Shown: positions 7,491 through 64,000, counted from the stretch's first letter. The stretch: DNA of 64,000 bases from an uncultured Verrucomicrobiae bacterium (GCA_963837955.1 CAWIPH010000002.1:128001-192000); one strand, 5' to 3'. Notes: a model not told the origin generated them from the letters alone. Numbers and translations: made by a program.

Positions 7491-7736
7491 CGAGCTGAAA
7501 ATACGGGATATCAGAACATAGGAGCCGGGATTGGAAGCGGTTCGGCGTCTCGCGCTTGGGTCAAAAGGCTGATACCTGGTTCTCCGCCCCGGAGGGGCCC
7601 GACGAAAGTAGCCCAGCAGTTTATTGCTGGGTAAAGGTTATAAAACGGGTCCGTCCCGCACGGGACGATCGAACCACCGCATGGGCTTGTAAGGTCACAT
7701 TGGAAGCCAATAACTGAACGTTTCGATCGTCCCTGG

Positions 7737-9409: not shown

Positions 9410-11974
9410 GTGGAAATCATTCAGGCCGAACCAAAATCATTTTCCGAGCGGTTACATCCCGTGATCGCGAATTGGTTTCTCGCCAAGTTTCAAAGATTCA
9501 CGCATGCCCAACAGCTGTGCATCCCAGCGATTCTGCAGAAAAGGTCGGTTCTGTTGAGTTCCCCAACCGGAAGCGGGAAAACGCTGGCTGCCTTTCTTGG
9601 AATTATTGATTTCATTCTTCGGGAGGTTGAACAGCCAAATCGCAAGACGAGATCGGGCGTACGGGCAATCTACATCTCGCCGCTGCGGGCTTTGGCTTAC
9701 GATATTCAAAAGAACCTTACCAGCCCGCTCGAAGAGATGGGGCTGCAAACGAGGATCCGGGTTGCACTTCGAACCGGCGATACCAAGCTGGCTGCCCGTC
9801 GAAAAATTCGGCAGACTCCGCCTCACATTCTGCTGATCACGCCCGAAAGCTTGGCGATCATTCTCAGCCAGAAGAGCTATCATGATTTGCTCAGCTCCTG
9901 CAGATACATCGTGGTCGACGAACTTCACGCGATTGCGGAAAACAAACGCGGCATGGACCTCATGCTTTCGCTGGAACGACTACAGGCTATCTGCGCGGAA
10001 CCACTTTGTCGGATCGGCCTATCAGCGACCGTCGCTCCGCTTGAGCGAATGGCCGAATTTCTCGTTGGCCCGAATCGGGATTGTCTGATCGCGGAAGCAC
10101 AGGTCGAGCGGAAGCAGATTGTCGAAGTCTTCTCGCCAATTCGCAAACAGCCTTATCCTCCAGCCGGCTACACCGGGACTCGTTTGCTGGAAGAATTGGC
10201 CAAGCTCGTCCAAAAGCATCAATCGGTGCTGATCTTTTGTAATACTCGCTCCGGCGCGGAAACCATCGGTATTCGGCTCAAGCAGACTCTTCCGGAGCTC
10301 GCTTCCCAAATTGAAACCCACCATTCCTCATTGGATCGGAGCGTACGCCTGTTGGTCGAAGACCGTCTAAAGAATGGGGAGCTTCGTGCGGTGGTCTGTT
10401 CGACCAGCCTGGAAATGGGCATCGATATCGGAGCCATCGATCTCGTGATCATGGTTTCAACGCCAAAAGGGATTTCCCGCACGCTTCAGCGCATCGGCCG
10501 GTCAGGGCATTCCATCCATCAAACCAGCTATGGCGTGTTAGCAGCAACTAACATCAACGATCTGGTGGAATGCACCGTGACGGCGAGTCTGGCCCGGCAA
10601 CGCCGCTTGGACCCGGTGCGAATATTGGAAAAGTGCAACGACGTCATCGCCCAACATATCGTGGGGATGGCTATGTCGGGTCCGATCCATCAAGAGGAAA
10701 TACTGAATGTGCTTCGGCGTTCTTGGCCATGTCGCGATCTCTCCGAAGAAACCTTCGAGCGAATTCTCCGATATCTGGAAGGAGGAGGGAAGGCGTTGGG
10801 TCCGCGGTACAGCACGCTCTTCGGGAAGATCGTGGTGGACGACGGATGGGTGCACGTTCCTTCCCGGGCGGTAGAACGACAGTATTTGCTGAACGTCGGT
10901 ACGATTCCGGCCGAAGGAATGGTGACGGTTTTTCTTGGCCGAAGGAAGCTAGGCCAAGTCGAAGAAGGCTTTATGAAGCGGTTGGCGATCGGCGATCGCT
11001 TTGTGCTGGCAGGCCGAATCGTTCAATTGGTCGAAGCGGGTGTAGTTCACGCCAGAGTCATCCTATCGAAGGGCGAAGGTCCGATCGTCCCAACCTGGAA
11101 TGCCAACAAGATGCCGCTCACGTCTGGCATCGCTCAGGAGGTCGTGCTTCTTCGATCTGAGATCGATCGACGGCTGGAAGAGAATGATCCGAACTTATCC
11201 GAGTGGTTGATCGAAGCCTATGAAATCAGTTCGGCCAACGCGGAAGCCATCATCAATCATTTTCGCGCACAACGCCGTTGCTCGCGCGTACCCGTCACTG
11301 GGATTTTTCTCGTCGAACTATATGTGAGCGAAGAAGGGCTCCTGAACTACTTCTTTCACTCGCTCATCGGCCGCAGCGGAAACGACGCGCTCTCGCGCAT
11401 TATCTCGTTTCGAGTGAAACAGCTGGTTGGCGGAAACGCTATGGTGACAATCGACGACTACGGGTTTTTACTGACCTTGCGTCCATTTCAACGTCTATCG
11501 AAGGCGCAGCTGCAGAGTCTTTTTCGGCCGGAATCGATCTCCGACGATTTAAAGGTTGCCCTCCGTGATTCGGAGTTGGTGCGCTGGCAATTTCGAGGAG
11601 TAGCCCAAACCGGTCTAATGGTTCCTCGCAATCGTCCGGACGTGGAGACAAGAGTCAAACAGATCCATTGGAGTGCAGAAATTCTGTTCCGGGTCCTGCA
11701 AGAGCACGAGCCGAACCATCCGTTATTGGAGGAAGCATACCGGCAAGCGGAATATACATTCTTGGACGCTGAACGAGCCTTCCGATTTGTTGAAGAGGTT
11801 CAAACTTACGACTGGGATGTGCGGGAGGTGCAGACTGTGAGCCCATTCGCATTTGGTATGTATGTCAGCCAGATCAAGGAGGCGATGCTTCACGAGGACC
11901 CCGAGACCGCGATCGAACGGTTGTACCATCGAATGTATGGGCGGGTTGAAGACCCGATAAGAAATGACAAATGA
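9410..11974 (+). CDS. lhr: ATP-dependent SF2 helicase, Lhr-core family
   Basis: Motifs 'SPTGSGKT', 'YISPLRALAYD', 'LLITPESL', 'DELH', 'IGLSAT', 'HHSSL', 'TSLEMGIDIG', 'QRIGRSGH'; 854 aa. Confidence 0.92.
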   Translation: MEIIQAEPKSFSERLHPVIANWFLAKFQRFTHAQQLCIPAILQKRSVLLSSPTGSGKTLAAFLGIIDFILREVEQPNRKTRSGVRAIYISPLRALAYDIQKNLTSPLEEMGLQTRIRVALRTGDTKLAARRKIRQTPPHILLITPESLAIILSQKSYHDLLSSCRYIVVDELHAIAENKRGMDLMLSLERLQAICAEPLCRIGLSATVAPLERMAEFLVGPNRDCLIAEAQVERKQIVEVFSPIRKQPYPPAGYTGTRLLEELAKLVQKHQSVLIFCNTRSGAETIGIRLKQTLPELASQIETHHSSLDRSVRLLVEDRLKNGELRAVVCSTSLEMGIDIGAIDLVIMVSTPKGISRTLQRIGRSGHSIHQTSYGVLAATNINDLVECTVTASLARQRRLDPVRILEKCNDVIAQHIVGMAMSGPIHQEEILNVLRRSWPCRDLSEETFERILRYLEGGGKALGPRYSTLFGKIVVDDGWVHVPSRAVERQYLLNVGTIPAEGMVTVFLGRRKLGQVEEGFMKRLAIGDRFVLAGRIVQLVEAGVVHARVILSKGEGPIVPTWNANKMPLTSGIAQEVVLLRSEIDRRLEENDPNLSEWLIEAYEISSANAEAIINHFRAQRRCSRVPVTGIFLVELYVSEEGLLNYFFHSLIGRSGNDALSRIISFRVKQLVGGNAMVTIDDYGFLLTLRPFQRLSKAQLQSLFRPESISDDLKVALRDSELVRWQFRGVAQTGLMVPRNRPDVETRVKQIHWSAEILFRVLQEHEPNHPLLEEAYRQAEYTFLDAERAFRFVEEVQTYDWDVREVQTVSPFAFGMYVSQIKEAMLHEDPETAIERLYHRMYGRVEDPIRNDK

Positions 11975-12001: not shown

Positions 12002-12610
12002 CCTATCCCGGAGGGATTCAATGAAAGTAGCCCAGCAATTTATTGCTGGGAATTAAAGCAAAGACGGTCCCGTCCCGCCAGGGACGATCGAAACTTTCTG
12101 TTATTGGCCCCATTGCGATTTCACGGGCCAATGCGGTGGTCGATCGTCCCTGCGGGACGGACCCGTTTTATAACGTTTACCCAGCCCCGCGGCCGCGCAT
12201 ACGCGTCAACATAAGAATTGGTTTGCCTGCTCCATCGCCGGGAGGGCGCGCGTCCCCGCGCGCCGAGAAAACGATCTCTAACCTGGGGGACGCAATTTAA
12301 CCCTTGGAATACAAACGCGCTTGGGTCCGGCCACAACGGATCGCGGGGACGCGATCCCTCCCCGTGTCGGGTCACGCGGCCGCGCATCCGCGTCAACTTA
12401 AGAATGGTTTGCCTGCTCCATCGCCGGGAGGGCGCGCGTCCCCGCGCGCCGAGAAAACGATCTCTAACCTGGGGGACGCAATTTAACCCTTGGTATACAA
12501 ACGCGCTTGGGTCCGGCCACAAGGGATCGCGGGGACGCGATCCCTCCCCGCGTTGGGTCACGCGGCCGCGGGGCTGGGCTACTTTCGTTGGATCCCTCCC
12601 GCGGGATAGG
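12002..12610. repeat. Family C REPIN/MITE carrying a tandem 2 x ~187 bp insertion
   Basis: Outer inverted arms CCTATCCCG..GAAAGTAGCCCAGC / GCTGGGCTACTTTC..CGGGATAGG; internal CGTCCC..GGGACG hairpins. Confidence 0.85.
12188..12570 (+). repeat. Tandem duplication (187 + 186 bp) bounded by three copies of the palindrome CGCGGCCGCG
   Basis: CGCGGCCGCG at 12188, 12375 and 12561. The units are nearly identical and each holds a GGAG-type REP doublet. Confidence 0.92.
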
Positions 12611-12695
12611 ATCAGAGCTTCGAATTGCGTGATGAGCCATTCTAGATAGTTGCCAACGCCTTACAACGTAGGCAGTTAAAAATCGCTCGCGCCCC

Positions 12696-13358
12696 TTAGC
12701 TAGTCGCTGGTAATTCCAATGAAATCTGGGTCGCGTCGGTTGCGGAGACCGTCGCGTTGATCCGTGCACCGGTTTGAACCATGGGCGCATTTTCGGGAGC
12801 AATTGCCACCTTGGTATTCAGTTGGTAGGGCGGACGATTGGCTACATGCACTTCCAGCAAAAGGTTCATCAGCTTGAAACGTCCGGCCGGTTCGGCTTCG
12901 ACCGCGTCTAATACTATCGCGGTAGCTTGAGCGGGTTGCCCGGCGAGGCCACCAGGTGCTGCCGGAGACGATACCGGACGCGGTTGGACGTTCAGGCCAG
13001 TCGACTCGACTGCGACCCTTTGCAGATCGTTCGGATCAAAACGGACTTGGATTTTCGAACCTGGCTGAAAGGCAGCAAGCGAAAGACGCGAGACGATCAG
13101 TTTGGTGTTCGCCTCAAAACCGGTACGAGATTGGGGCTGAACGAATAACCGAAGAGCGACTCGCGGATTGTCGTTCACCGTGACTCCAGTGTCGGAAATG
13201 CTGAGAACTTCAGCGACGGCTGACTCTCCGTTACGCAGCAGCGCCTGGCGCTGCCCGCTCTCGCGCATCATCCGAAGGAAGAATCGCGCAACGAAAAAGA
13301 TCACTGTCGCAGTAAGCAAAAGCGGGAGAATGACCGACAAGAGAATGATTATAAGCAT
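12696..13358 (-). CDS. Membrane-anchored hypothetical protein with two similar beta-rich domains (DUF3592-like)
   Basis: N-terminal TM helix, then 'GESAVAEVLSISDTGVTVNDNP..PGSKIQVRFDPND' and a second diverged copy. Confidence 0.7.
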   Translation of the reverse strand: MLIIILLSVILPLLLTATVIFFVARFFLRMMRESGQRQALLRNGESAVAEVLSISDTGVTVNDNPRVALRLFVQPQSRTGFEANTKLIVSRLSLAAFQPGSKIQVRFDPNDLQRVAVESTGLNVQPRPVSSPAAPGGLAGQPAQATAIVLDAVEAEPAGRFKLMNLLLEVHVANRPPYQLNTKVAIAPENAPMVQTGARINATVSATDATQISLELPATS

Positions 13359-16963: not shown

Positions 16964-17331
16964 GCGTCAACATAAGAGGAACGATATGTGCCCAGAGTCG
17001 TCCCGGCTTGTCCGCCGTAGCCAGGAGGGCGAAGGAGGAAGGGACTCAATGAAAGTAGCCCAGTACGAAGTGCTGGGATGGCGTTCAAAAAAAGGGACCC
17101 GTCCCGGACGGGACGATCGAGGGTTGCTTACGCTGGTGAAGCTGCATACGAGAGAACCAGGGGCCAGGACACTTCTATCGTCCCTGCCGGGACGGACGTC
17201 TTTTTTGCATTATTTCCCAGCACTTCGTACTGGGCTACTTTCATTGAGTCCCTTCCTCCTTCGCCCTCCTGGCTACGGCGCACAAGCCGGGACCAATCCT
17301 CTGCGGATGCTTCTAAGCCTTCTGTTGAAGC
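16964..17331. mobile_element. Composite MITE-like element (GCGTCAACATAAG termini enclosing a family C REPIN and two mini-elements)
   Basis: GCGTCAACATAAG at 16964 and CTTCTGTTGAAGC at 17319-17331; the interior is a long imperfect palindrome. Homologous copy at 59864..60180. Confidence 0.8.
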
Positions 17332-49626: not shown

Positions 49627-49680
49627 ACTGATAATCCAAAGACGGAACCACAGATTTGAGATTGGACCGCAGATTGCGCA

Positions 49681-52990: not shown

Positions 52991-53383
52991 ATGAGCACTC
53001 ATCGTTGTTGCGAAGTCACTGTGAGCGGTGGCCGCCGCGAGAGGGCCGGAACGCGAACCATGGATGGCGATCGGCGGCTGCCAAAGTTCGCCCGGCGTTG
53101 TTCTGAAATCGCGGGATGGATCGTTCCGAGCGCCACCCTGGCGCTTTTGCCCAAGTGTCCCGTATGTATAGCGACCTACGCTGTGATTGGAACCGGAGTC
53201 GGGCTTTCGGTCTCAACCGTGACCTTTCTGCGGACGCTGCTTGTGATCCTGTGTGTGCTGTTGCTGACATACCTCGTAGCCAAACGCGGGTGGCATTTCA
53301 TCGTATTGATTTTCGAGACGAGGAGAAAAACGGTCAAACAAACGATTGATCGAGCGCTGAACCATTGCGAAAGACAAATATGA
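52991..53383 (+). CDS. Small membrane protein with a PKCPxC motif
   Basis: 'LALLPKCPVCIATYAVIGTGVGLS' plus a TM helix; its stop overlaps the next ATG. Confidence 0.7.
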   Translation: MSTHRCCEVTVSGGRRERAGTRTMDGDRRLPKFARRCSEIAGWIVPSATLALLPKCPVCIATYAVIGTGVGLSVSTVTFLRTLLVILCVLLLTYLVAKRGWHFIVLIFETRRKTVKQTIDRALNHCERQI

Positions 53384-53787
53384 GCACACAGCCGACAACA
53401 TCCGAATACATGCTGTTATTCCGGAGCGGAGAGTGGGACAAGGATCTCTCCCCGGAAGAGATCCAGAAGATCATGGGCAAATGGAATGCCTGGTTCGAAC
53501 GGTTAAACCAGCAGGGGAAGGTCGTCAGCGCCCACCCTCTCGAGCGTGAGGGGAGGGTCGTTTCCGGGACAAAAGGGCGGCCGGTGGCCGATGGTCCTTT
53601 TGTTGAGTCCAAAGAAGCCATTGGCGGCTATTTCCTGCTGCAAGTCGGTGACCTCGAAGAGGCGGTGAAAATCGCCAAAGAGTGCCCAGCGGTGGAACAT
53701 GGTTTGACCGTTGAAGTCCGGCCGGTGGCGGAGCAGTGCCCGCCCATGCGATGGGCGAACGAGCAACTGACCCAGGCGACCGCTTGA
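53380..53787 (+). CDS. YciI/DGPF domain protein
   Basis: 'YMLLFR', 'VADGPFVESKEAIGGYFLL..EEAVKIAKECP..VEVRPV'. Confidence 0.92.
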   Translation: MSTQPTTSEYMLLFRSGEWDKDLSPEEIQKIMGKWNAWFERLNQQGKVVSAHPLEREGRVVSGTKGRPVADGPFVESKEAIGGYFLLQVGDLEEAVKIAKECPAVEHGLTVEVRPVAEQCPPMRWANEQLTQATA

Positions 53788-55076
53788 GCGAATTTCAAGA
53801 TAGCAGTGGCGCGCCCCCAGCAGAAATTTCCCAGTTGGCGGAACATCTCTTTCGCCATGAGGCAGGAAAGCTGGTTTCTGTCCTGACAGGAATCTTTGGA
53901 ATTGACCGCCTGCAATTGGCTGAGGATGTGGTCCAAGAAGCATTGGTCCGTGCGTTGAAGACGTGGCCCTATTATGGGATTCCGAAGAACCCCGCCGCGT
54001 GGATCACCCAAACGGCGAAGAACCTCGCGTTAGACTTGATTCGGCGGGAAAAGCTCTTCCGCGAAAAGCAGCCAGAAATTGTGGCAACCATTGAGCAGTG
54101 GCCGGGCGACTCAGTTGCTGGCGATTCGCCTTTATTCGACAGCGAAATAAGAGACGGCCGTCTGCGGTTAATGTTTGCGTGCTGCCATCCGCTTCTCCCG
54201 CCAGAGGCGCAGACGGCGCTGGCCCTTAAGACACTTTGCGGATTCAGCGCCGCCGAAATCGCGAAGGCATTTCTCACGACCGAGGTGGCGATTGCCAAGA
54301 GACTGACGCGAACCAGGCAAAAAATTCGCGAGCTACACATTCCCTTCGAGATTCCGTCCGGCGATGAGTTTTCAGCTCGTCTGGATGGTGTGCTACAAAC
54401 TCTCTATCTGCTTTTCAACGAAGGTTACAAGGCGTCGAGCGGTGACAGCCTCGTCCGGGAGGAACTGTGCTATGAAGCGATTCGTCTGGCGACATTGCTA
54501 GCCGAGCACCCGATGGGCAATCATCCCCGCACTCATGCTCTGGTCGCGCTGATGTTGTTGAACGGAGCGCGACTCTCCGCGCGAGTAGACACGGAAGGAA
54601 ATATTCTTCGTCTCAAGGAGCAGGATCGGTCGAGTTGGAACAAGGAAATGATCGGGCGCGGGATGTTACACTTAGGCCGATCGGCAGCGGGAGAAGAACT
54701 CAGCGGATACCATCTTCAGGCCGGTATTGCCGCCTGCCATTGCATGGCCGACGACTATGAGTCCACGGATTGGCCGAGAATCTTGTCCCTCTACGATCAA
54801 TGGATGGAGACGAATGATTCTCCGATCGTCGCCCTTAATCGTGCCGTGGCTGTTGCGAATGTGGACGGCCCCAAAGCCGGCATTGCGGCAGTCGAGGCAA
54901 TTCGGAACCGAGGTCAGTTAGATTCGTATTACCTGCTTTATGCGGTCCTCGGCGAGTTCGAGGCGCAACTGCATAACTTCCAGACTGCTACCGACAATTT
55001 CCGGAAGGCGCTGCAACTAACTGAGGTGAAATCGGAACAATCTTTTCTATCGAAACGGCTCCGGGATTGTGAATAG
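53784..55076 (+). CDS. ECF sigma factor with C-terminal DUF6596/TPR extension (ECF42 group)
   Basis: 'LAEDVVQEAL..W..GIPKNPAAW', 'LRLMFACCHP', 'EIAKAFL', 'LYLLFNEGY', 'YHLQAGIAACH', 'SPIVALNRAVA'; next to a DGPF protein. Confidence 0.93.
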   Translation: MSEFQDSSGAPPAEISQLAEHLFRHEAGKLVSVLTGIFGIDRLQLAEDVVQEALVRALKTWPYYGIPKNPAAWITQTAKNLALDLIRREKLFREKQPEIVATIEQWPGDSVAGDSPLFDSEIRDGRLRLMFACCHPLLPPEAQTALALKTLCGFSAAEIAKAFLTTEVAIAKRLTRTRQKIRELHIPFEIPSGDEFSARLDGVLQTLYLLFNEGYKASSGDSLVREELCYEAIRLATLLAEHPMGNHPRTHALVALMLLNGARLSARVDTEGNILRLKEQDRSSWNKEMIGRGMLHLGRSAAGEELSGYHLQAGIAACHCMADDYESTDWPRILSLYDQWMETNDSPIVALNRAVAVANVDGPKAGIAAVEAIRNRGQLDSYYLLYAVLGEFEAQLHNFQTATDNFRKALQLTEVKSEQSFLSKRLRDCE

Positions 55077-55555
55077 CAGGATCTGCGCATTCGACCTCCT
55101 CTGAGAACTTCGCGATCTCCTGTTCAAACTGAGGTGAAATCGGAACAATAGTTTCCATCGAAAAGACTACAGGATTGTGAATACCAGGATCTGCGCATTC
55201 AACCTCCTCTGGAATCTTCGTGATCTCCTGTTCAAAATGAGGCGAGATCGGAACAATCGTTTCTATCGAAAAGACTCCGGGATTGTGAATAGCAGGATCT
55301 GCACATTCAACCTCTGGGATCTTCGCGATCTCCTGTTCAAAACGAGGCGAGATCGGAACAATCGTTTCTATCGAAAAGACTACGGGACTGTGAACAGCGG
55401 GATCTGCACATTCGACCTCCTCTGGGATCTTCGCGATCTCCTGTTCAAAATGGGGTGAGATCTGAACAATCGTTTCCATCGAAAAGAATACCGGATTGTG
55501 AATAGAGGGGTTTGGCATTTCAACCTCCTCTGGGATCTTCGTGATCTCCTGTTCA
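55019..55555 (+). repeat. Tandem array, 5 x ~108 bp, containing the 3' end of the ECF42 gene
   Basis: Unit starts at 55019, 55127, 55235, 55340 and 55448 (periods 108, 108, 105, 108, 108). Confidence 0.95.
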
Positions 55556-56743
55556 AAACTCCGTCTTCGCGGTCTCTTTGTGGAGCATCTGATCGAAAAC
55601 AAGCTTTCCGGCGATCCAGACGCGCTGAACCGCGAATCGGTCATCGAAGAGCACTAAATCAGCAGTTTTACCCGACTGAATTGAGCCAAAACGGTCACCG
55701 ATCCCTAGGATCGTCGCCGGGGTGAGAGAGGCCATGCGCACGGCGTCGAATAGCGGGACATCGGCCCGCTGAATTACGGTTCGGACCAAATCAATCATCC
55801 GAGCCAAACTCCCTGCCAAGGCTGATTCATCTTCAAGCATGGCGTAACCGGGACCAACTTTGGACGCCACGCTCCCAAGTTGGAATTTCGTACCTTCCGG
55901 TAAGCCGGCGCCCGCCAACGAATCTGATACCAGGGCGATTCGCTCAGCACCTTTCGCCCGATACGCTAGTTTCAGTAACGTTGGCGATACATGGAATCCG
56001 TCGGCGACGAGTTCGCAGAAAACATTTTCATCTGCTAACGCGAACTCCAATGTACCGGCCTGCCGGAATAGGCCGCGTTTCGAGGCGCTCGACATCGCGT
56101 TGAACAGGTGGGTTACTTTCTTGAGGCCAACAGCAACCGCGGCTTGCATTTCCTGGTCTGAGGCCTCGGTATGACCGGCGCTCATGGTCACCCCGGCCCG
56201 GGTCGCAGCCTCAATGAGATCCAAAGCGCCGGGCAATTCTGGAGCGATGGTCATTTGGGAAATGCTTCGAGCCCGCGATAGAATCCAATCGCGTTCTTTT
56301 GCTCCGGGCGGGCCCATCAATTTCGGATTCTGAGCGCCCGCTTTCGACCGCGCAAGATGCGGTCCCTCGAGATGTACAGGCAATAGACGGGCTTTGGAGC
56401 TCTGCTTGGCGGTTTGCCAGGCGTCTAAGAAAGAATCGAAGTGATCGTAGGTCGTCGTGGCTGCGGTCGGACAAATAGACGTTGTTCCTCCCGAAAGATG
56501 AAAGTCAGCGGCAGTAAGAAACGCTTCGGCAGTGGCATCTAGAAAGTCTGAACCCCTACCTCCGTGAACGTGAAGGTCGATGAAGCCAGGGGCAAGATAA
56601 GACCCATTCGCGTCCATTCGATCCTGCACGTCCGGAAGAGCGCCCTCGCCGATCGTATGTATCAATTCATCAGCGATCAACAGCCAACCCCGATCCAAGA
56701 CTCGATCGGGCAAAATCAATCTCGCGTTATAGATGCATAGCAT
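55553..56743 (-). CDS. nagA: N-acetylglucosamine-6-phosphate deacetylase
   Basis: 'PGFIDLHVHG', 'HLEGP', 'TIAPE', 'GHT', 'THLFNAM', 'DGFHV', 'LAGS'. Confidence 0.93.
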   Translation of the reverse strand: MLCIYNARLILPDRVLDRGWLLIADELIHTIGEGALPDVQDRMDANGSYLAPGFIDLHVHGGRGSDFLDATAEAFLTAADFHLSGGTTSICPTAATTTYDHFDSFLDAWQTAKQSSKARLLPVHLEGPHLARSKAGAQNPKLMGPPGAKERDWILSRARSISQMTIAPELPGALDLIEAATRAGVTMSAGHTEASDQEMQAAVAVGLKKVTHLFNAMSSASKRGLFRQAGTLEFALADENVFCELVADGFHVSPTLLKLAYRAKGAERIALVSDSLAGAGLPEGTKFQLGSVASKVGPGYAMLEDESALAGSLARMIDLVRTVIQRADVPLFDAVRMASLTPATILGIGDRFGSIQSGKTADLVLFDDRFAVQRVWIAGKLVFDQMLHKETAKTEF

Positions 56744-59863: not shown

Positions 59864-60180
59864 GAGTCAAGATAAGAGGAAGGATATGCCCGAGGGGAGT
59901 GGGCCCGGCTTGTCCGCCGTAGCCCGGAGGTCGCGCGACGGCGAGGCGAAGGAGGAAGGGACTCAGTGAAAGTAGCCCAGCACGAAGTGCTGGGAAATAA
60001 TGCAAAAAGAGACGTCCGTCCCGCCAGAGGGACGATAGAAATGTTTTGGCTCCTGGACATCTCGTATGCCCTCACCCGCGTAAGCAGCCGTCGATCGTCC
60101 CATTCCTCCTTCGGCATCCTGACTATGGAGGACAGGCCGGGACGAGTCTTTGCGCAACCCTCTAAGCCCTATGTTGACGC
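59864..60180. mobile_element. Composite MITE-like element, second copy, internally deleted
   Basis: GAGTCAAGATAAG...CCTATGTTGACGC termini; the interior matches 16964..17331 but lacks one arm segment between two GTCCC motifs. Confidence 0.8.
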
Positions 60181-60866: not shown

Positions 60867-63308
60867 CTACTCTCTCAGAGCAGTGATCGGACTGATGCGG
60901 GTCGCGCGGAGCGCTGGGAGAAGACAAGCGAGCAATGCGGCCAGACCAAGTACCAACACGGCCAGTCCGAGCGCGACTGGATCGCTGCCTGATACTCCGT
61001 AAAGAATGCTCTCGATGAATCTGGTAAAGATCAGTGCTGCCGGGATGCCAACGACCAATCCGATACACACGAGCTTCAGCCCTTGTCGTGTAACCAATTT
61101 GAGAATGTTCGATGATTGCGCACCCAGAGCGATCCGAACTCCGAACTCTCGTTTCCGTTGGCTAACCGAATAGGCTAGCACACCGTATAAACCGATTGCC
61201 GACAGGAGCAGGGCAGCACCCGAAAACAAACCGACCAGAAGCACTCCAAGCCGTCGAGTCACAAACTTTTTGTCGATCAGGTCATCCAAAGTATCGGCCT
61301 TGGCGACAGGTACGTCCGGATCGATCGATGCCACCACTTTTCGGATGGCGGGCACTAAAGCGGCTGGATCACCGGTCGAGCGCAAAATCAAGATTTCAAA
61401 ATCAAAGTTGTATTGACTGCTCGGAAAATACGCGTGGAAAGCAGCCTGTTGATAGTCCGGGCTATTGTGGCGTATCTCTGGAACCACTCCAATGACGGTG
61501 CAAACATAAGGGATCCCCTCATCACGAACCCCGATCTGCTGGCCAAGCGGGTTCTGCCTTGGAAAAAAACTGTTGGCAAACGCTTCATCGATGATGACGA
61601 CACGCGGGCTATCAAGCTTGTCTTGCGCATCGAAATTGCGGCCTTGTAACAACGGAATTTGCAGCGTCTGAAAATAACTTGGAGAAATCGTATGCCAGGC
61701 CAGTTTCGGTTGATGCCCGGGACCAGGGTCGGGCTGGCCAACCACGCTGAAAGGGGTAGCAAATCCCCAGATCAAATCCCAGTAGAACGGCGGGTTGTCA
61801 TTCAGCGCCGTTTCCGTAACCCCAGGAAGCTGGCGCACCTTTTGCAACATTGCATCCCAGAAAACACCTGCTCGCACCCGGTCCGATCGGTACTTGGTAC
61901 TCGCCAGGTAGAGCTCGGCGGCAAGGATGTGATGAGGATTAAAACCAAGCGGGACGTTTTGGGCAGCCTGGAAGCTGCGCACCAGGAGTCCTGCTCCGAC
62001 CAGCAGCACGCAGGCTAACGCGACCTGTCCAATGATCAAGATGGATTGCGTGCGCTGCCTCTGTGGTCCAATGGTACCGGCACGGCCACCCTCATCTTTG
62101 AGCGCGGAAGCGACATTGGCTTTCGAAAGACTCCAGGCCGGCAGACAGCCCGAGAGTAGTGAGGTGACCGCGGTTACCCCGAAGGCAAACAACAGTGCTC
62201 TGGAGTCGAGGTGAACCCCTTGAAATCGATACTGCAAGCCGTACAGGTCTGGTGGAATAAGCGCTTTGACGGTTCCAATGGTCCAAAGAGCGACCAAGAG
62301 TCCGGCGATCCCACCGAGCAGCGCCAGGAATGTGGTTTCCAAAAGCAGCTGACCGATGAGGCGGAGACGACTCGCCCCGAGCGCGGCTCGAATGGTCATT
62401 TCCTTTCGGCGTTCCAAAGCCCGGGCAAACAACAAATTGGCAACGTTGGCGCAGGAAACTAACAAAAGACAACCCGAAGCGGCGCCAAGCAGCCAGATGG
62501 TTGGGGCGAAATCGTTTACTAAGTTATCAAGCGGGGTAACGACTCGGATGCCGTAGCCCTTATCCGTATCGGGGTATCGAGCACTCAAGTTGTCATGAAT
62601 GATGTCCAACTCTGTTTGGGCTTGAGCGAGGCTGACTCCATCCTTCAATCGGCCAAGACCAGTCGCGATGTGTTGGTCTCGCTGCATCAGGTTGGAACCG
62701 AAAAGTGGAAGCGCATTAACCGGCACATACACGTCACAGGGAGTCCAATAATCGACTTGGGCCGGTACAACGCCGATCACCTGAAACGTGTGATCACTCA
62801 ACGTGAGATTCTGGCCGACGATATTCGGATCGGAATTGAAGCGGGTTCTCCAGAATGCTTCATTTAAAACCACTACCAACGGGCCGCCCGGCACATCCTC
62901 ATTTTCAGTAAATGGTCGACCGAGAATGGAGGGAATTCCGCTTACTTTGAACATGCTAGGAGAAACAAAATCGACATGGAGTCGTTCAGCTTCTCCCTTA
63001 CCAATGAGGTCGAGAGTACCGCTGCACACAATAGCGAGACTGTCGAAGCTATGCTGAGCCGCAGAGATATCCAGGTAGTCAGGATAATCGAGCCCGCTTT
63101 CCCGACCTTGAGCAGTCAGGTACATCTGTATTAACCGGTCTGGCTTTGGGTAGGAAAACGGCCTCAGGAGGACGGCATCAATCACGCTGAAAATTGCGGC
63201 ATTCAGACCGATCCCGAACCCAAGGATCAGCACAGCCGTGATTGTAAATCCGGGCGACTTGAGAAGTAACCACACTGTATGCCGCATGGATTTTAGGAAA
63301 TCGTTCAT
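60867..63308 (-). CDS. ADOP-family duplicated MacB/FtsX-like ABC permease
   Basis: 'LKSPGFTITAVLILGFGIGLNAAIFSV', 'CANVANLLFAR..EMTIRAALGA', 'GLYGVLAYSVSQR..GVRIALGA', 'PITALRE'. Confidence 0.93.
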   Translation of the reverse strand: MNDFLKSMRHTVWLLLKSPGFTITAVLILGFGIGLNAAIFSVIDAVLLRPFSYPKPDRLIQMYLTAQGRESGLDYPDYLDISAAQHSFDSLAIVCSGTLDLIGKGEAERLHVDFVSPSMFKVSGIPSILGRPFTENEDVPGGPLVVVLNEAFWRTRFNSDPNIVGQNLTLSDHTFQVIGVVPAQVDYWTPCDVYVPVNALPLFGSNLMQRDQHIATGLGRLKDGVSLAQAQTELDIIHDNLSARYPDTDKGYGIRVVTPLDNLVNDFAPTIWLLGAASGCLLLVSCANVANLLFARALERRKEMTIRAALGASRLRLIGQLLLETTFLALLGGIAGLLVALWTIGTVKALIPPDLYGLQYRFQGVHLDSRALLFAFGVTAVTSLLSGCLPAWSLSKANVASALKDEGGRAGTIGPQRQRTQSILIIGQVALACVLLVGAGLLVRSFQAAQNVPLGFNPHHILAAELYLASTKYRSDRVRAGVFWDAMLQKVRQLPGVTETALNDNPPFYWDLIWGFATPFSVVGQPDPGPGHQPKLAWHTISPSYFQTLQIPLLQGRNFDAQDKLDSPRVVIIDEAFANSFFPRQNPLGQQIGVRDEGIPYVCTVIGVVPEIRHNSPDYQQAAFHAYFPSSQYNFDFEILILRSTGDPAALVPAIRKVVASIDPDVPVAKADTLDDLIDKKFVTRRLGVLLVGLFSGAALLLSAIGLYGVLAYSVSQRKREFGVRIALGAQSSNILKLVTRQGLKLVCIGLVVGIPAALIFTRFIESILYGVSGSDPVALGLAVLVLGLAALLACLLPALRATRISPITALRE

Positions 63309-63331: not shown

Positions 63332-64000
63332 CTACTCTCTAAGGGCAGTGATCGGATTGATTCGGGTTGCCCGTGGCGCTGGTAAAAAACAAGCGAAGAA
63401 TGCGGCTAGACCAAGAACGACCGCAGCCGTCAGAAGTGTGATCGGATCGTTGGCCGATACCCCATAATAGCATACTTTCGATTAGACGCGTTAAAGCGAG
63501 CGCACTGACAATTCCGACGACCAACCCGATGCCGACTAGCTTAAGTCCTTGCCGGAATACCAATTCGAGAACGTTGGATGATTGTGCACCCAGTGCGACC
63601 CGAATGCCGATGTCACGTGTCCGTTGGCTGACAGAATAGGCCAGAACACCGTACAAACCAATCGCCGATAGGAATAGCCCAATGCCGGAAAAGATGCTTA
63701 CCAAAAGCACTGCCAGTCGCCGGGTCACAAATTTCTGGGCGATAAGGTCTTCGAAAGTGGTCAATTTAATGACAGGTATGTCTGGATCGATCGAGGCCAC
63801 CGCTTTTCGGATGGCGGGTATAAAGGTCAGTGGATCGCCTGCCGTACGCACGACTAAGACCTCAAAACCGACAAATCGTTGAGCGTACGGAAAGTAACCT
63901 TGAAACGGAGCCTGTTGATGATCCGGGGAGTTGTGCCGCACGTTTTCGGCGACACCGACAATCGTGCACGTTTTTTTGCCGTTCCATTGGCTTAGGTGAT
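63332..64000 (-). CDS. Second ADOP-family permease, C-terminal part only; frameshift near 63465
   Basis: 'GLYGVLAYSVSQRTRDIGIRVALGA'; after a frameshift it reads YGVSANDPITL..RATRINPITALRE* ending at 63332. Confidence 0.88.

Follow-up and report, generated by a model that had tools for sequence, protein, structure and literature searches.

Several described classes of repeated or duplicated DNA provide the closest points of comparison for the array considered here. In bacterial minisatellites (VNTR), which form by tandem duplication and unequal crossover, units from some tens of bases up to roughly a hundred adjoin one another head to tail. Mycobacterial interspersed repetitive units (MIRUs) hold a small ORF, reside between co-oriented genes, spare the genes that flank them, and are apparently mobile. 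In the published account cited here, MIRUs are dispersed, touch gene ends, and insert at start codons (PMC12548453). For the tandem repeats of Borgs, the published description is of perfect, A-rich arrays of recent origin whose units measure about 20 nt (PMC9879509). Finally, tandem duplication mediated by microhomology, presented in work on fission yeast, supplies a candidate mechanism for the event that first doubles a segment (bioRxiv 10.1101/2020.03.03.972455).

We analyzed a tandem array that lies between an ECF sigma-factor gene and the convergent gene nagA, within a 64-kb window (the whole stretch of DNA under analysis). Our reading, held with good though not complete confidence, is that the array is an old minisatellite that arose by tandem duplication of a single 108-nt segment and that has no apparent function. 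Like bacterial minisatellites, the array has units that follow one another head to tail and abut, its units are mosaic, and it has no detectable function. A further likeness is possible, namely a copy number that may differ between the arrays represented by the metagenome ORFs P0121 and P0122, which come from short contigs in which collapse is possible. Two features set the array apart from bacterial minisatellites: the source of its unit can be named, a conserved gene whose 3' end was copied together with the spacer that separates it from a convergent gene, and its units are unusually diverged (6–21%).

Comparison with the other described systems is likewise one of partial resemblance. As with MIRUs, short tandem units touch gene ends, and the flanking genes are undisrupted; unlike MIRUs, the unit derives from a local gene, lies between convergent genes, and has no other copy in the window. 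The array can be likened to the tandem repeats of Borgs as described, in that it starts inside the end of the sigma gene and its flanks share 2–4 nt; it differs from them in having a 108-nt unit, in being imperfect and old, and in residing on a Verrucomicrobiota-type bacterial chromosome (PMC9879509). Microhomology-mediated tandem duplication is a candidate for the first event here, given that AACT occurs at both edges of the array. The match, however, is 2–4 nt and one base off register, and the cited work concerns fission yeast (bioRxiv 10.1101/2020.03.03.972455). Literature searches, none aimed at this organism, returned no description of this array.

Anatomy of the array and its flanking genes

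Tandem Repeats Finder places the array between the sigma gene and nagA at 55022–55558, with a period of 108, 5.0 copies, 87% matches, 1% indels, and a score of 785. The unit boundaries that we set give a span of 55021–55557. The initial annotation had proposed a five-fold 108-bp array copied from the 3' end of the sigma gene, and the unit lengths of 108, 108, 105, 108, and 108 nt agree with that proposal. All five units are described on the plus strand. Unit 1 (u1; 55021–55128; 108 nt) contains the live sigma end, that is, 17 codons and the TAG stop, followed by 52 nt. Unit 2 (u2; 55129–55236; 108 nt) is a dead copy in which Ser7 has become a stop, Leu9 has become Pro, Arg14 has become Gln, and the stop has become Tyr. 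Unit 3 (u3; 55237–55341) is 105 nt long owing to a 3-nt deletion and is a dead copy with Val2 changed to Ala and Lys3 changed to Arg. In unit 4 (u4; 55342–55449; 108 nt), also a dead copy, the stop has become Gln. Unit 5 (u5; 55450–55557; 108 nt) carries the stop codon of nagA within its end.

The units are arranged head to tail at spacings of 108, 108, 105, and 108 nt, with no DNA between them. Pairwise identity runs from 78.7% (u1/u5) to 94.3% (u3/u4), equivalent to 6–21% divergence, and u5 is the most diverged unit (79–85% identity to the others). The 3-nt gap in u3 is the sole indel among the five units, and the triplets at the stop position, from u1 to u5, are TAG/TAC/TAG/CAG/TAG; both the single 3-bp indel and the varying stop had been remarked upon earlier, correctly. 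Each unit closes with an invariant 15-mer, for which 5 occurrences compare with 0.17 expected, a count reached in 0 of 100 shuffles. Neither this 15-mer nor a 30-mer taken from the other half of the unit has a copy outside 55021–55557 in the 64-kb window. Within the window, a dispersed repeat of the MIRU, REP, or MITE kind was rejected on this basis. The same result speaks, within the window, against the idea that the 50-nt part of the unit is a dispersed repeat.

GATC occurs 15 times in the array, and the 537-nt stretch of the window that is richest in this site, with 17, overlaps it. GATC is common throughout the window (553 sites, with 245 expected), and at least 4 sites are present in 837 of 63891 windows of 108 nt. 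Special GATC clustering was rejected as a property of the array; the density follows from amplification of an unremarkable unit that has 3–4 sites.

Upstream of the array are two genes on the plus strand. A YCII-domain gene (53365–53787; Pfam YCII, E 4.3e-14) lies immediately upstream of the sigma gene, and it has this position in 14 of 14 related loci. The sigma gene (53736–55076; Pfam Sigma70_r2, Sigma70_r4_2, and DUF6596) has its last 56 nt, with the TAG, inside u1. Its 446-aa product carries Sigma70_r2 at residues 38–106, Sigma70_r4_2 at 146–197, and DUF6596 at 215–316 (Pfam), and fits the ECF42 layout of a sigma-2 plus sigma-4 core followed by a long C-terminal extension of about 200 residues. 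ECF42 sigma factors are associated with DGPF-type genes. Judged from its domain layout and its YCII neighbor, we call this sigma factor ECF42-like. In the reports cited here, the C-terminal extension of ECF42 proteins is rich in tetratricopeptide repeats and essential for activity (PMC8999054; bioRxiv 10.1101/2019.12.11.873521); by analogy with those reports on ECF42, the extension in the present protein is presumably of tetratricopeptide type. A putative promoter motif of this sigma group has 0 matches in the window with 1.5 expected, a result that is uninformative either way.

Downstream, and convergent with the sigma gene, is nagA, encoding N-acetylglucosamine-6-phosphate deacetylase (55553–56743, minus strand; NCBIfam TIGR00221, Pfam Amidohydro_1). 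The protein scores 265 bits against TIGR00221, for which the cut-off is 225.65, and covers model positions 7–380 of 380. In 0 of the 14 related loci is nagA found downstream of the sigma gene. The sigma ORF ends at 55076, inside u1, and the nagA stop codon occupies 55553–55555, inside u5. Both positions bear out the earlier statement that u1 is the live gene end and u5 supplies the nagA stop, and the facts given in the initial annotation hold throughout. Through the array, the gap between the two convergent stop codons has grown from about 47 nt to 476 nt. The tetranucleotide AACT, as read from the sequence, stands just before and at the array start (55019–55022) and recurs at 55557–55560, one base out of register. 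It is a possible microhomology for the first duplication, a weak one of 2–4 nt.

Direction of copying and the fate of the copies

The sigma tail TEVKSEQSFLSKRLRDCE is conserved in homologs. Specifically, the tail LTEVKSEQSFLSKRLRDCE is recognizable in the 70 homolog tails examined, which are among the best 120 listed, and the sigma tail is also recognizable in the sigma orthologs of 14 genome loci. These loci were found with the sigma protein; they come from Verrucomicrobiota/Chthoniobacterales MAGs other than the source genome, and their sigma identity is 62–83%. Used as a query with u1 removed, u2–u5 match the sigma 3' ends of L002 and L004–L010 at 77–86% over 33–56 nt (blastn), and in a codon alignment the units and the orthologous sigma ends correspond column for column. 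A second copy of the sigma coding end is present in none of the 14 related loci, with the qualification that the L011 sequence ends 41 nt past the match and is judged for those 41 nt only. This single-copy state in the relatives supports a derived, lineage-specific expansion. Given the conserved tail, the match of u2–u5 to orthologous sigma 3' ends, and relatives that carry no duplicate, sequence comparison indicates that the array is a lineage-specific amplification of the sigma gene end, as opposed to a dispersed element that captured a gene end.

The tail of the sigma protein is short. Most homologs extend 3–40 residues beyond DCE, and L007 has GTG at the position of the window's TAG. Because TAG is present in three of the five units, the short tail likely predates the duplication; that is, it was probably already in place when the segment was duplicated.

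The live unit and the dead copies have changed in different ways. Ancestral states were polarised by the majority of units together with four outgroups (L007–L010). In u1, the 17 sigma codons contain three derived nucleotide changes, all silent and none replacing (TCG to TCT and AGA to CGG). In u2–u5, the distinct changes comprise 3 silent ones (Leu13, Asp15, and Ser4) versus 10 replacing ones (Val2Ala, Lys3Arg, Glu1Gly, Ser7stop, Leu9Pro, Arg14Gln, Arg14Pro, Leu13Ile, stop to Tyr, and stop to Gln). The damage in these copies includes one in-frame stop (u2) and three changes to proline, namely Leu to Pro in both u2 and u5, and Arg to Pro in u5. Silent sites make up about 22% of the sites in the 17 sigma codons, and thus 3 silent versus 10 replacing changes is the neutral expectation. 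At the Arg codon, the dead copies keep the AGA of the four nearest orthologous loci, or an AGG variant; the live gene has CGG. The pattern points to purifying selection acting on u1 only, with u2–u5 as dead pseudo-ends that drift neutrally. The initial annotation had drawn attention to four synonymous differences among the units. All four are present, but the damaging changes in the same frame had been left out. Two of the four reflect the live gene drifting under constraint, and the other two belong to the neutral background.

The hint contained in those synonymous differences, of selection specific to the sigma frame, does not hold. Over the whole unit, pN/pS in the sigma frame is 0.94. For the 17 codons only, the value is 0.42, but it is lower still (0.30) in another plus-strand frame, and shuffling the columns does as well as the sigma frame in 218 of 2000 trials. 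Values of pN/pS below 1 occur in three frames (+1, 0.42; −0, 0.51; −1, 0.88), weak tests given just 30 variable columns. These 30 variable columns, of 108, are distributed 12/8/10 by phase, with no phase bias. A count of synonymous and nonsynonymous changes in all six frames had been set beforehand as a test, and, within the limited power that 30 variable columns afford, it yields no significant bias in any frame. A lack of frame bias is part of what the initial annotation had itself named as refuting its more interesting options.

Variants appear to have moved among the units. Eight informative two-state columns fall into 6 partition classes, and 9 class pairs are incompatible by the four-gamete test. 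For example, u2 agrees with u1 at columns 1 and 10 but with u5 at columns 28 and 93. Some of the incompatible pairs may stem from recurrent mutation; gene conversion or unequal crossover within the array would be the simpler reading of the mosaic.

Further evidence comes from an ORF on the opposite strand, which the initial annotation had not mentioned. A 218-aa ORF (54988–55644, minus strand) is open through all five units, begins at an ATG 92 nt inside nagA, and matches no Pfam family above cut-off. A search against 1.84 billion representative proteins returned four hits. Two of them, P0123 and P0124, are long repeat proteins that match weakly, at 25% identity. The other two, P0121 (140 aa, from a 2769-bp contig) and P0122 (69 aa, from a 924-bp contig), are ORFs that lie over the same array on metagenome contigs. 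Word-index searches of 5.8 billion proteins matched only P0121 and P0122, both of which are labelled 'hypothetical protein'. Our strain comparison consists of these ORF translations from short metagenome contigs (2769 and 924 bp), in which a different unit order may be collapse.

When the two ORFs are aligned to the window, each shifts frame inside a unit, and P0121 does so three times. P0121 runs in the same order as u4-u3-u2-u1 followed by the sigma gene in antisense, spans about 3.5 units, and shares the 3-nt deletion of u3. In its alignment, u1 differs at 1 of 36 residues, compared with about 3–4 of 26–27 (by eye) in those parts of u2 and u3 that can be read. Such slower change in u1 than in u2 and u3 is the pattern expected if only u1 is constrained. 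In P0121 and P0122 alike, the u1 tail is unchanged. In P0122, a unit of P0121's fourth type (u4-like) adjoins u1; on a contig of 924 bp, where assembly collapse is possible, this arrangement may represent either a shorter array or a collapse. Because unit marks, including the u3 deletion, recur in P0121, the array and the identities of its units are, on this comparison of translations, older than the split of these strains.

Alternative readings of the array

The array could act at the RNA level, either as a repeated 3' UTR of the sigma gene, of nagA, or of both, or as an extra 430 nt that separates two convergent transcription units. In one variant, transcription running on from nagA would yield RNA in which the end of the sigma mRNA is represented in antisense as many as five times. 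We regard a role of this kind as unlikely. Several observations are compatible with it. The stretch between the convergent genes yielded no intrinsic terminator, so their transcripts may overlap; the gap between the stop codons has widened as noted above; and variation is lowest in the third of the unit nearest to nagA. Specifically, the last 35 unit columns contain 4 variable columns, compared with 26 in the other 73 (Fisher p 0.011, uncorrected for window choice), and a small constrained element in this part of the unit is possible. When the choice of window is corrected for, however, this contrast loses its significance, since random placement does as well in 691 of 5000 trials. No Rfam family matches the locus (54500–56000 at E up to 1; the whole window at gathering score). 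The folding of the 10 unit strands (z from −1.68 to +0.83) is not better than that of shuffles, and a promoter and terminator scan found one site of each kind, not above shuffles. In addition, a related contig carries frameshifting indels, the dead units change faster than u1, and the array is present in 0 of 14 related genomes.

A more general possibility is that the array is kept for some function, whether as a multi-copy antisense or 3'-UTR module or as a reservoir of donor sequence with which gene conversion now and then overwrites the final 17 residues of the sigma protein. We think this improbable. If the antisense module were real, the several imperfect antisense copies in nagA read-through transcripts would couple the breakdown of amino sugars to the abundance of the sigma factor.

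The initial annotation had also raised the possibility of a cassette array. The notion is that u1 recombines with the downstream units and, in doing so, swaps or extends the tail at the C terminus of the sigma protein. Exchange does occur, as the mosaic units show; the 3n period would keep the reading frame; and the ECF42 extension to which the tail belongs is reported, in the sources cited, to be essential for activity (PMC8999054; bioRxiv 10.1101/2019.12.11.873521). The would-be cassettes, however, carry a stop (u2) and helix-breaking prolines (Leu to Pro or Arg to Pro, in u2 and u5), and their ratio of 3 silent to 10 replacing changes is neutral. Moreover, the u1 tail is the same in both related ORFs, any exchange is limited to the last 17 residues, and no recombinase or reverse transcriptase is present among the 50 window ORFs scanned. 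A store of cassettes is, in our estimation, very unlikely.

The minus-strand ORF at 54988–55644 might instead be a real protein composed of 36-residue repeats. Its 218 codons remain open through all of the units, pN/pS in its frame is 0.51, and the single indel is a multiple of three, at 3 nt. Against these points, its sole relatives besides the two weak 25% hits are two frame-shifted ORFs over the same array, its product has no Pfam match above cut-off, its start codon is internal to nagA, and the variable sites show no 3-periodicity. A period of 3n is itself sufficient to explain the open frame, because any frame without a stop in one unit is carried unbroken through all the repeats. We judge the ORF to be a by-product of the 3n period and probably not a gene, and we consider a genuine protein highly improbable.

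Where the 3' end of a gene is repeated right behind the gene itself, the copies could, in principle, be scars of a mobile element that repeatedly integrated and excised while restoring the gene end, an idea that had been put forward earlier, or could be the repeats of a diversity-generating retroelement. A Pfam scan of 50 ORFs in the window detected no integrase, transposase, or reverse transcriptase, and the units abut with no foreign DNA between them. An att-site duplication was rejected on these grounds. The retroelement was rejected as well: there is no reverse transcriptase among these ORFs, and only 5–8 of the 10–23 mismatches between u1 and the other units fall on adenines of the other unit. 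Either origin is scarcely credible. Equally hard to credit is an assembly artefact, for although repeats are a known source of assembly error, the units differ by 6–21% where copies created by misassembly would be almost the same, two independently assembled contigs show this array with its unit marks, and the source contig is 5,040,315 nt long.

Proposed history of the array and its meaning

The reading that we prefer, an old minisatellite with no apparent function, can be stated as a sequence of events. The source segment of 108 nt would have consisted of the last 17 sigma codons and the stop, a spacer of roughly 47 nt, and the nagA stop. The first duplication may have occurred by slippage or microhomology, perhaps via AACT, the short and weak A-rich match at the segment boundaries. 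As the anatomy shows, such a segment starts in one gene end and finishes in the other, with the sigma gene reading into the first unit and nagA reading into the last. Each added copy leaves both genes whole and neither protein altered, and thus there is no selection against the duplication, which can persist.

Later unequal exchange may have raised the copy number to five and shuffled variants among the units, and unequal crossover or gene conversion has probably altered copy number between strains. Sequence divergence slows homologous recombination. Rising divergence among the units would then have slowed exchange. The present 6–21% divergence implies that the array is old and largely frozen. 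Among the explanations first offered, old amplification that preserves earlier alleles is the one that fits, in light of this divergence, the AGA and AGG codons kept in the dead copies, and the marks shared with P0121. Some observations count against the neutral reading: units up to 21% apart nonetheless form a clean array with a 3n period, as drift need not produce, pN/pS is below 1 in three frames, and the last 35 unit columns vary less than the others.

In our assessment, the array opens no new biological question and behaves as an ordinary bacterial minisatellite. What it offers is a direct comparison, within one array, of a live unit with dead copies, the first having accumulated silent changes only and the second having decayed neutrally while keeping the ancestral Arg codon. 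It also carries a warning for annotation. The 3n period leaves a 218-codon antisense ORF, and on two metagenome contigs public pipelines have already called 'hypothetical proteins' over the array. Strains of this soil Verrucomicrobiota group could be typed by means of the locus. Finally, selection does not see a tandem duplication whose two boundaries fall within the ends of convergent genes, and convergent junctions may thus be safe places for minisatellites to arise and to age.

ORFs and gene ends at the 108-nt array

The 108-nt array, five head-to-tail units between the convergent sigma-factor and nagA genes (window 55021-55557), gives rise to long spurious ORFs on both strands, at 55177-55458 (+) and 54988-55644 (-). 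Public pipelines have annotated the same array in metagenome contigs as "hypothetical proteins" (P0121 and P0122, on contigs of 2769 and 924 bp).

The sigma factor itself, which is ECF42-like, ends in ...RDCE, and most of its homologues are longer by 3-40 variable residues. At L007, a related locus with a sigma orthologue (compared around 11312-11324), GTG takes the place of the TAG stop at window 55074-55076; DNA similarity extends ~7 nt beyond the stop.

Other repeats in the window

A second tandem repeat, at 12188-12570, comprises 2.1 copies of a 186-nt unit with 96-98% identity. Like the 108-nt array, it occupies a gap between convergent ORFs, here those of an Lhr-type helicase (9410-11974, +) and an unnamed ORF (12696-13358, -). 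It stops short of both flanking gene ends, however, whereas the 108-nt array extends into both. Copies of a dispersed palindromic element lie inside the 186-nt repeat.

Short repeats dispersed among the intergenic regions of the window fall into at least three families: D3/D6 (12324, 12510, 16910, 18469, 36574, and 42875), D4/D12 (3911, 33879, 49815, and 51993; inverted at 49678 and 51870), and D8/D11/D13/D15 (7588-7672, 12007-12091, 16995-17120, and 59897-60023). These repeats look like REP- or MITE-type elements, and none of the window's dispersed families is akin to the 108-nt unit. Some are palindromic around GATC, a motif that is ~2.25-fold over-represented across the whole window (553 sites versus 245 expected from base composition).

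Families D5 and D7 are stretches, ~75% identical in DNA, common to two neighbouring MacB/FtsX-type permease genes (60867-63308 and 63339-63998). The pair looks like an old tandem gene duplication.

Tandem repeats in related genomes

Two related genomes also carry tandem repeats, unrelated ones, 3' of the sigma orthologue. In L009, a 33-nt unit repeated 3.8 times (1752-1876) begins directly after the orthologue's stop codon; in L014, a 221-nt unit is present in 3.0 copies (12174-12837) ~0.9 kb further downstream. Tandem repeats may be common in the intergenic DNA of this group.
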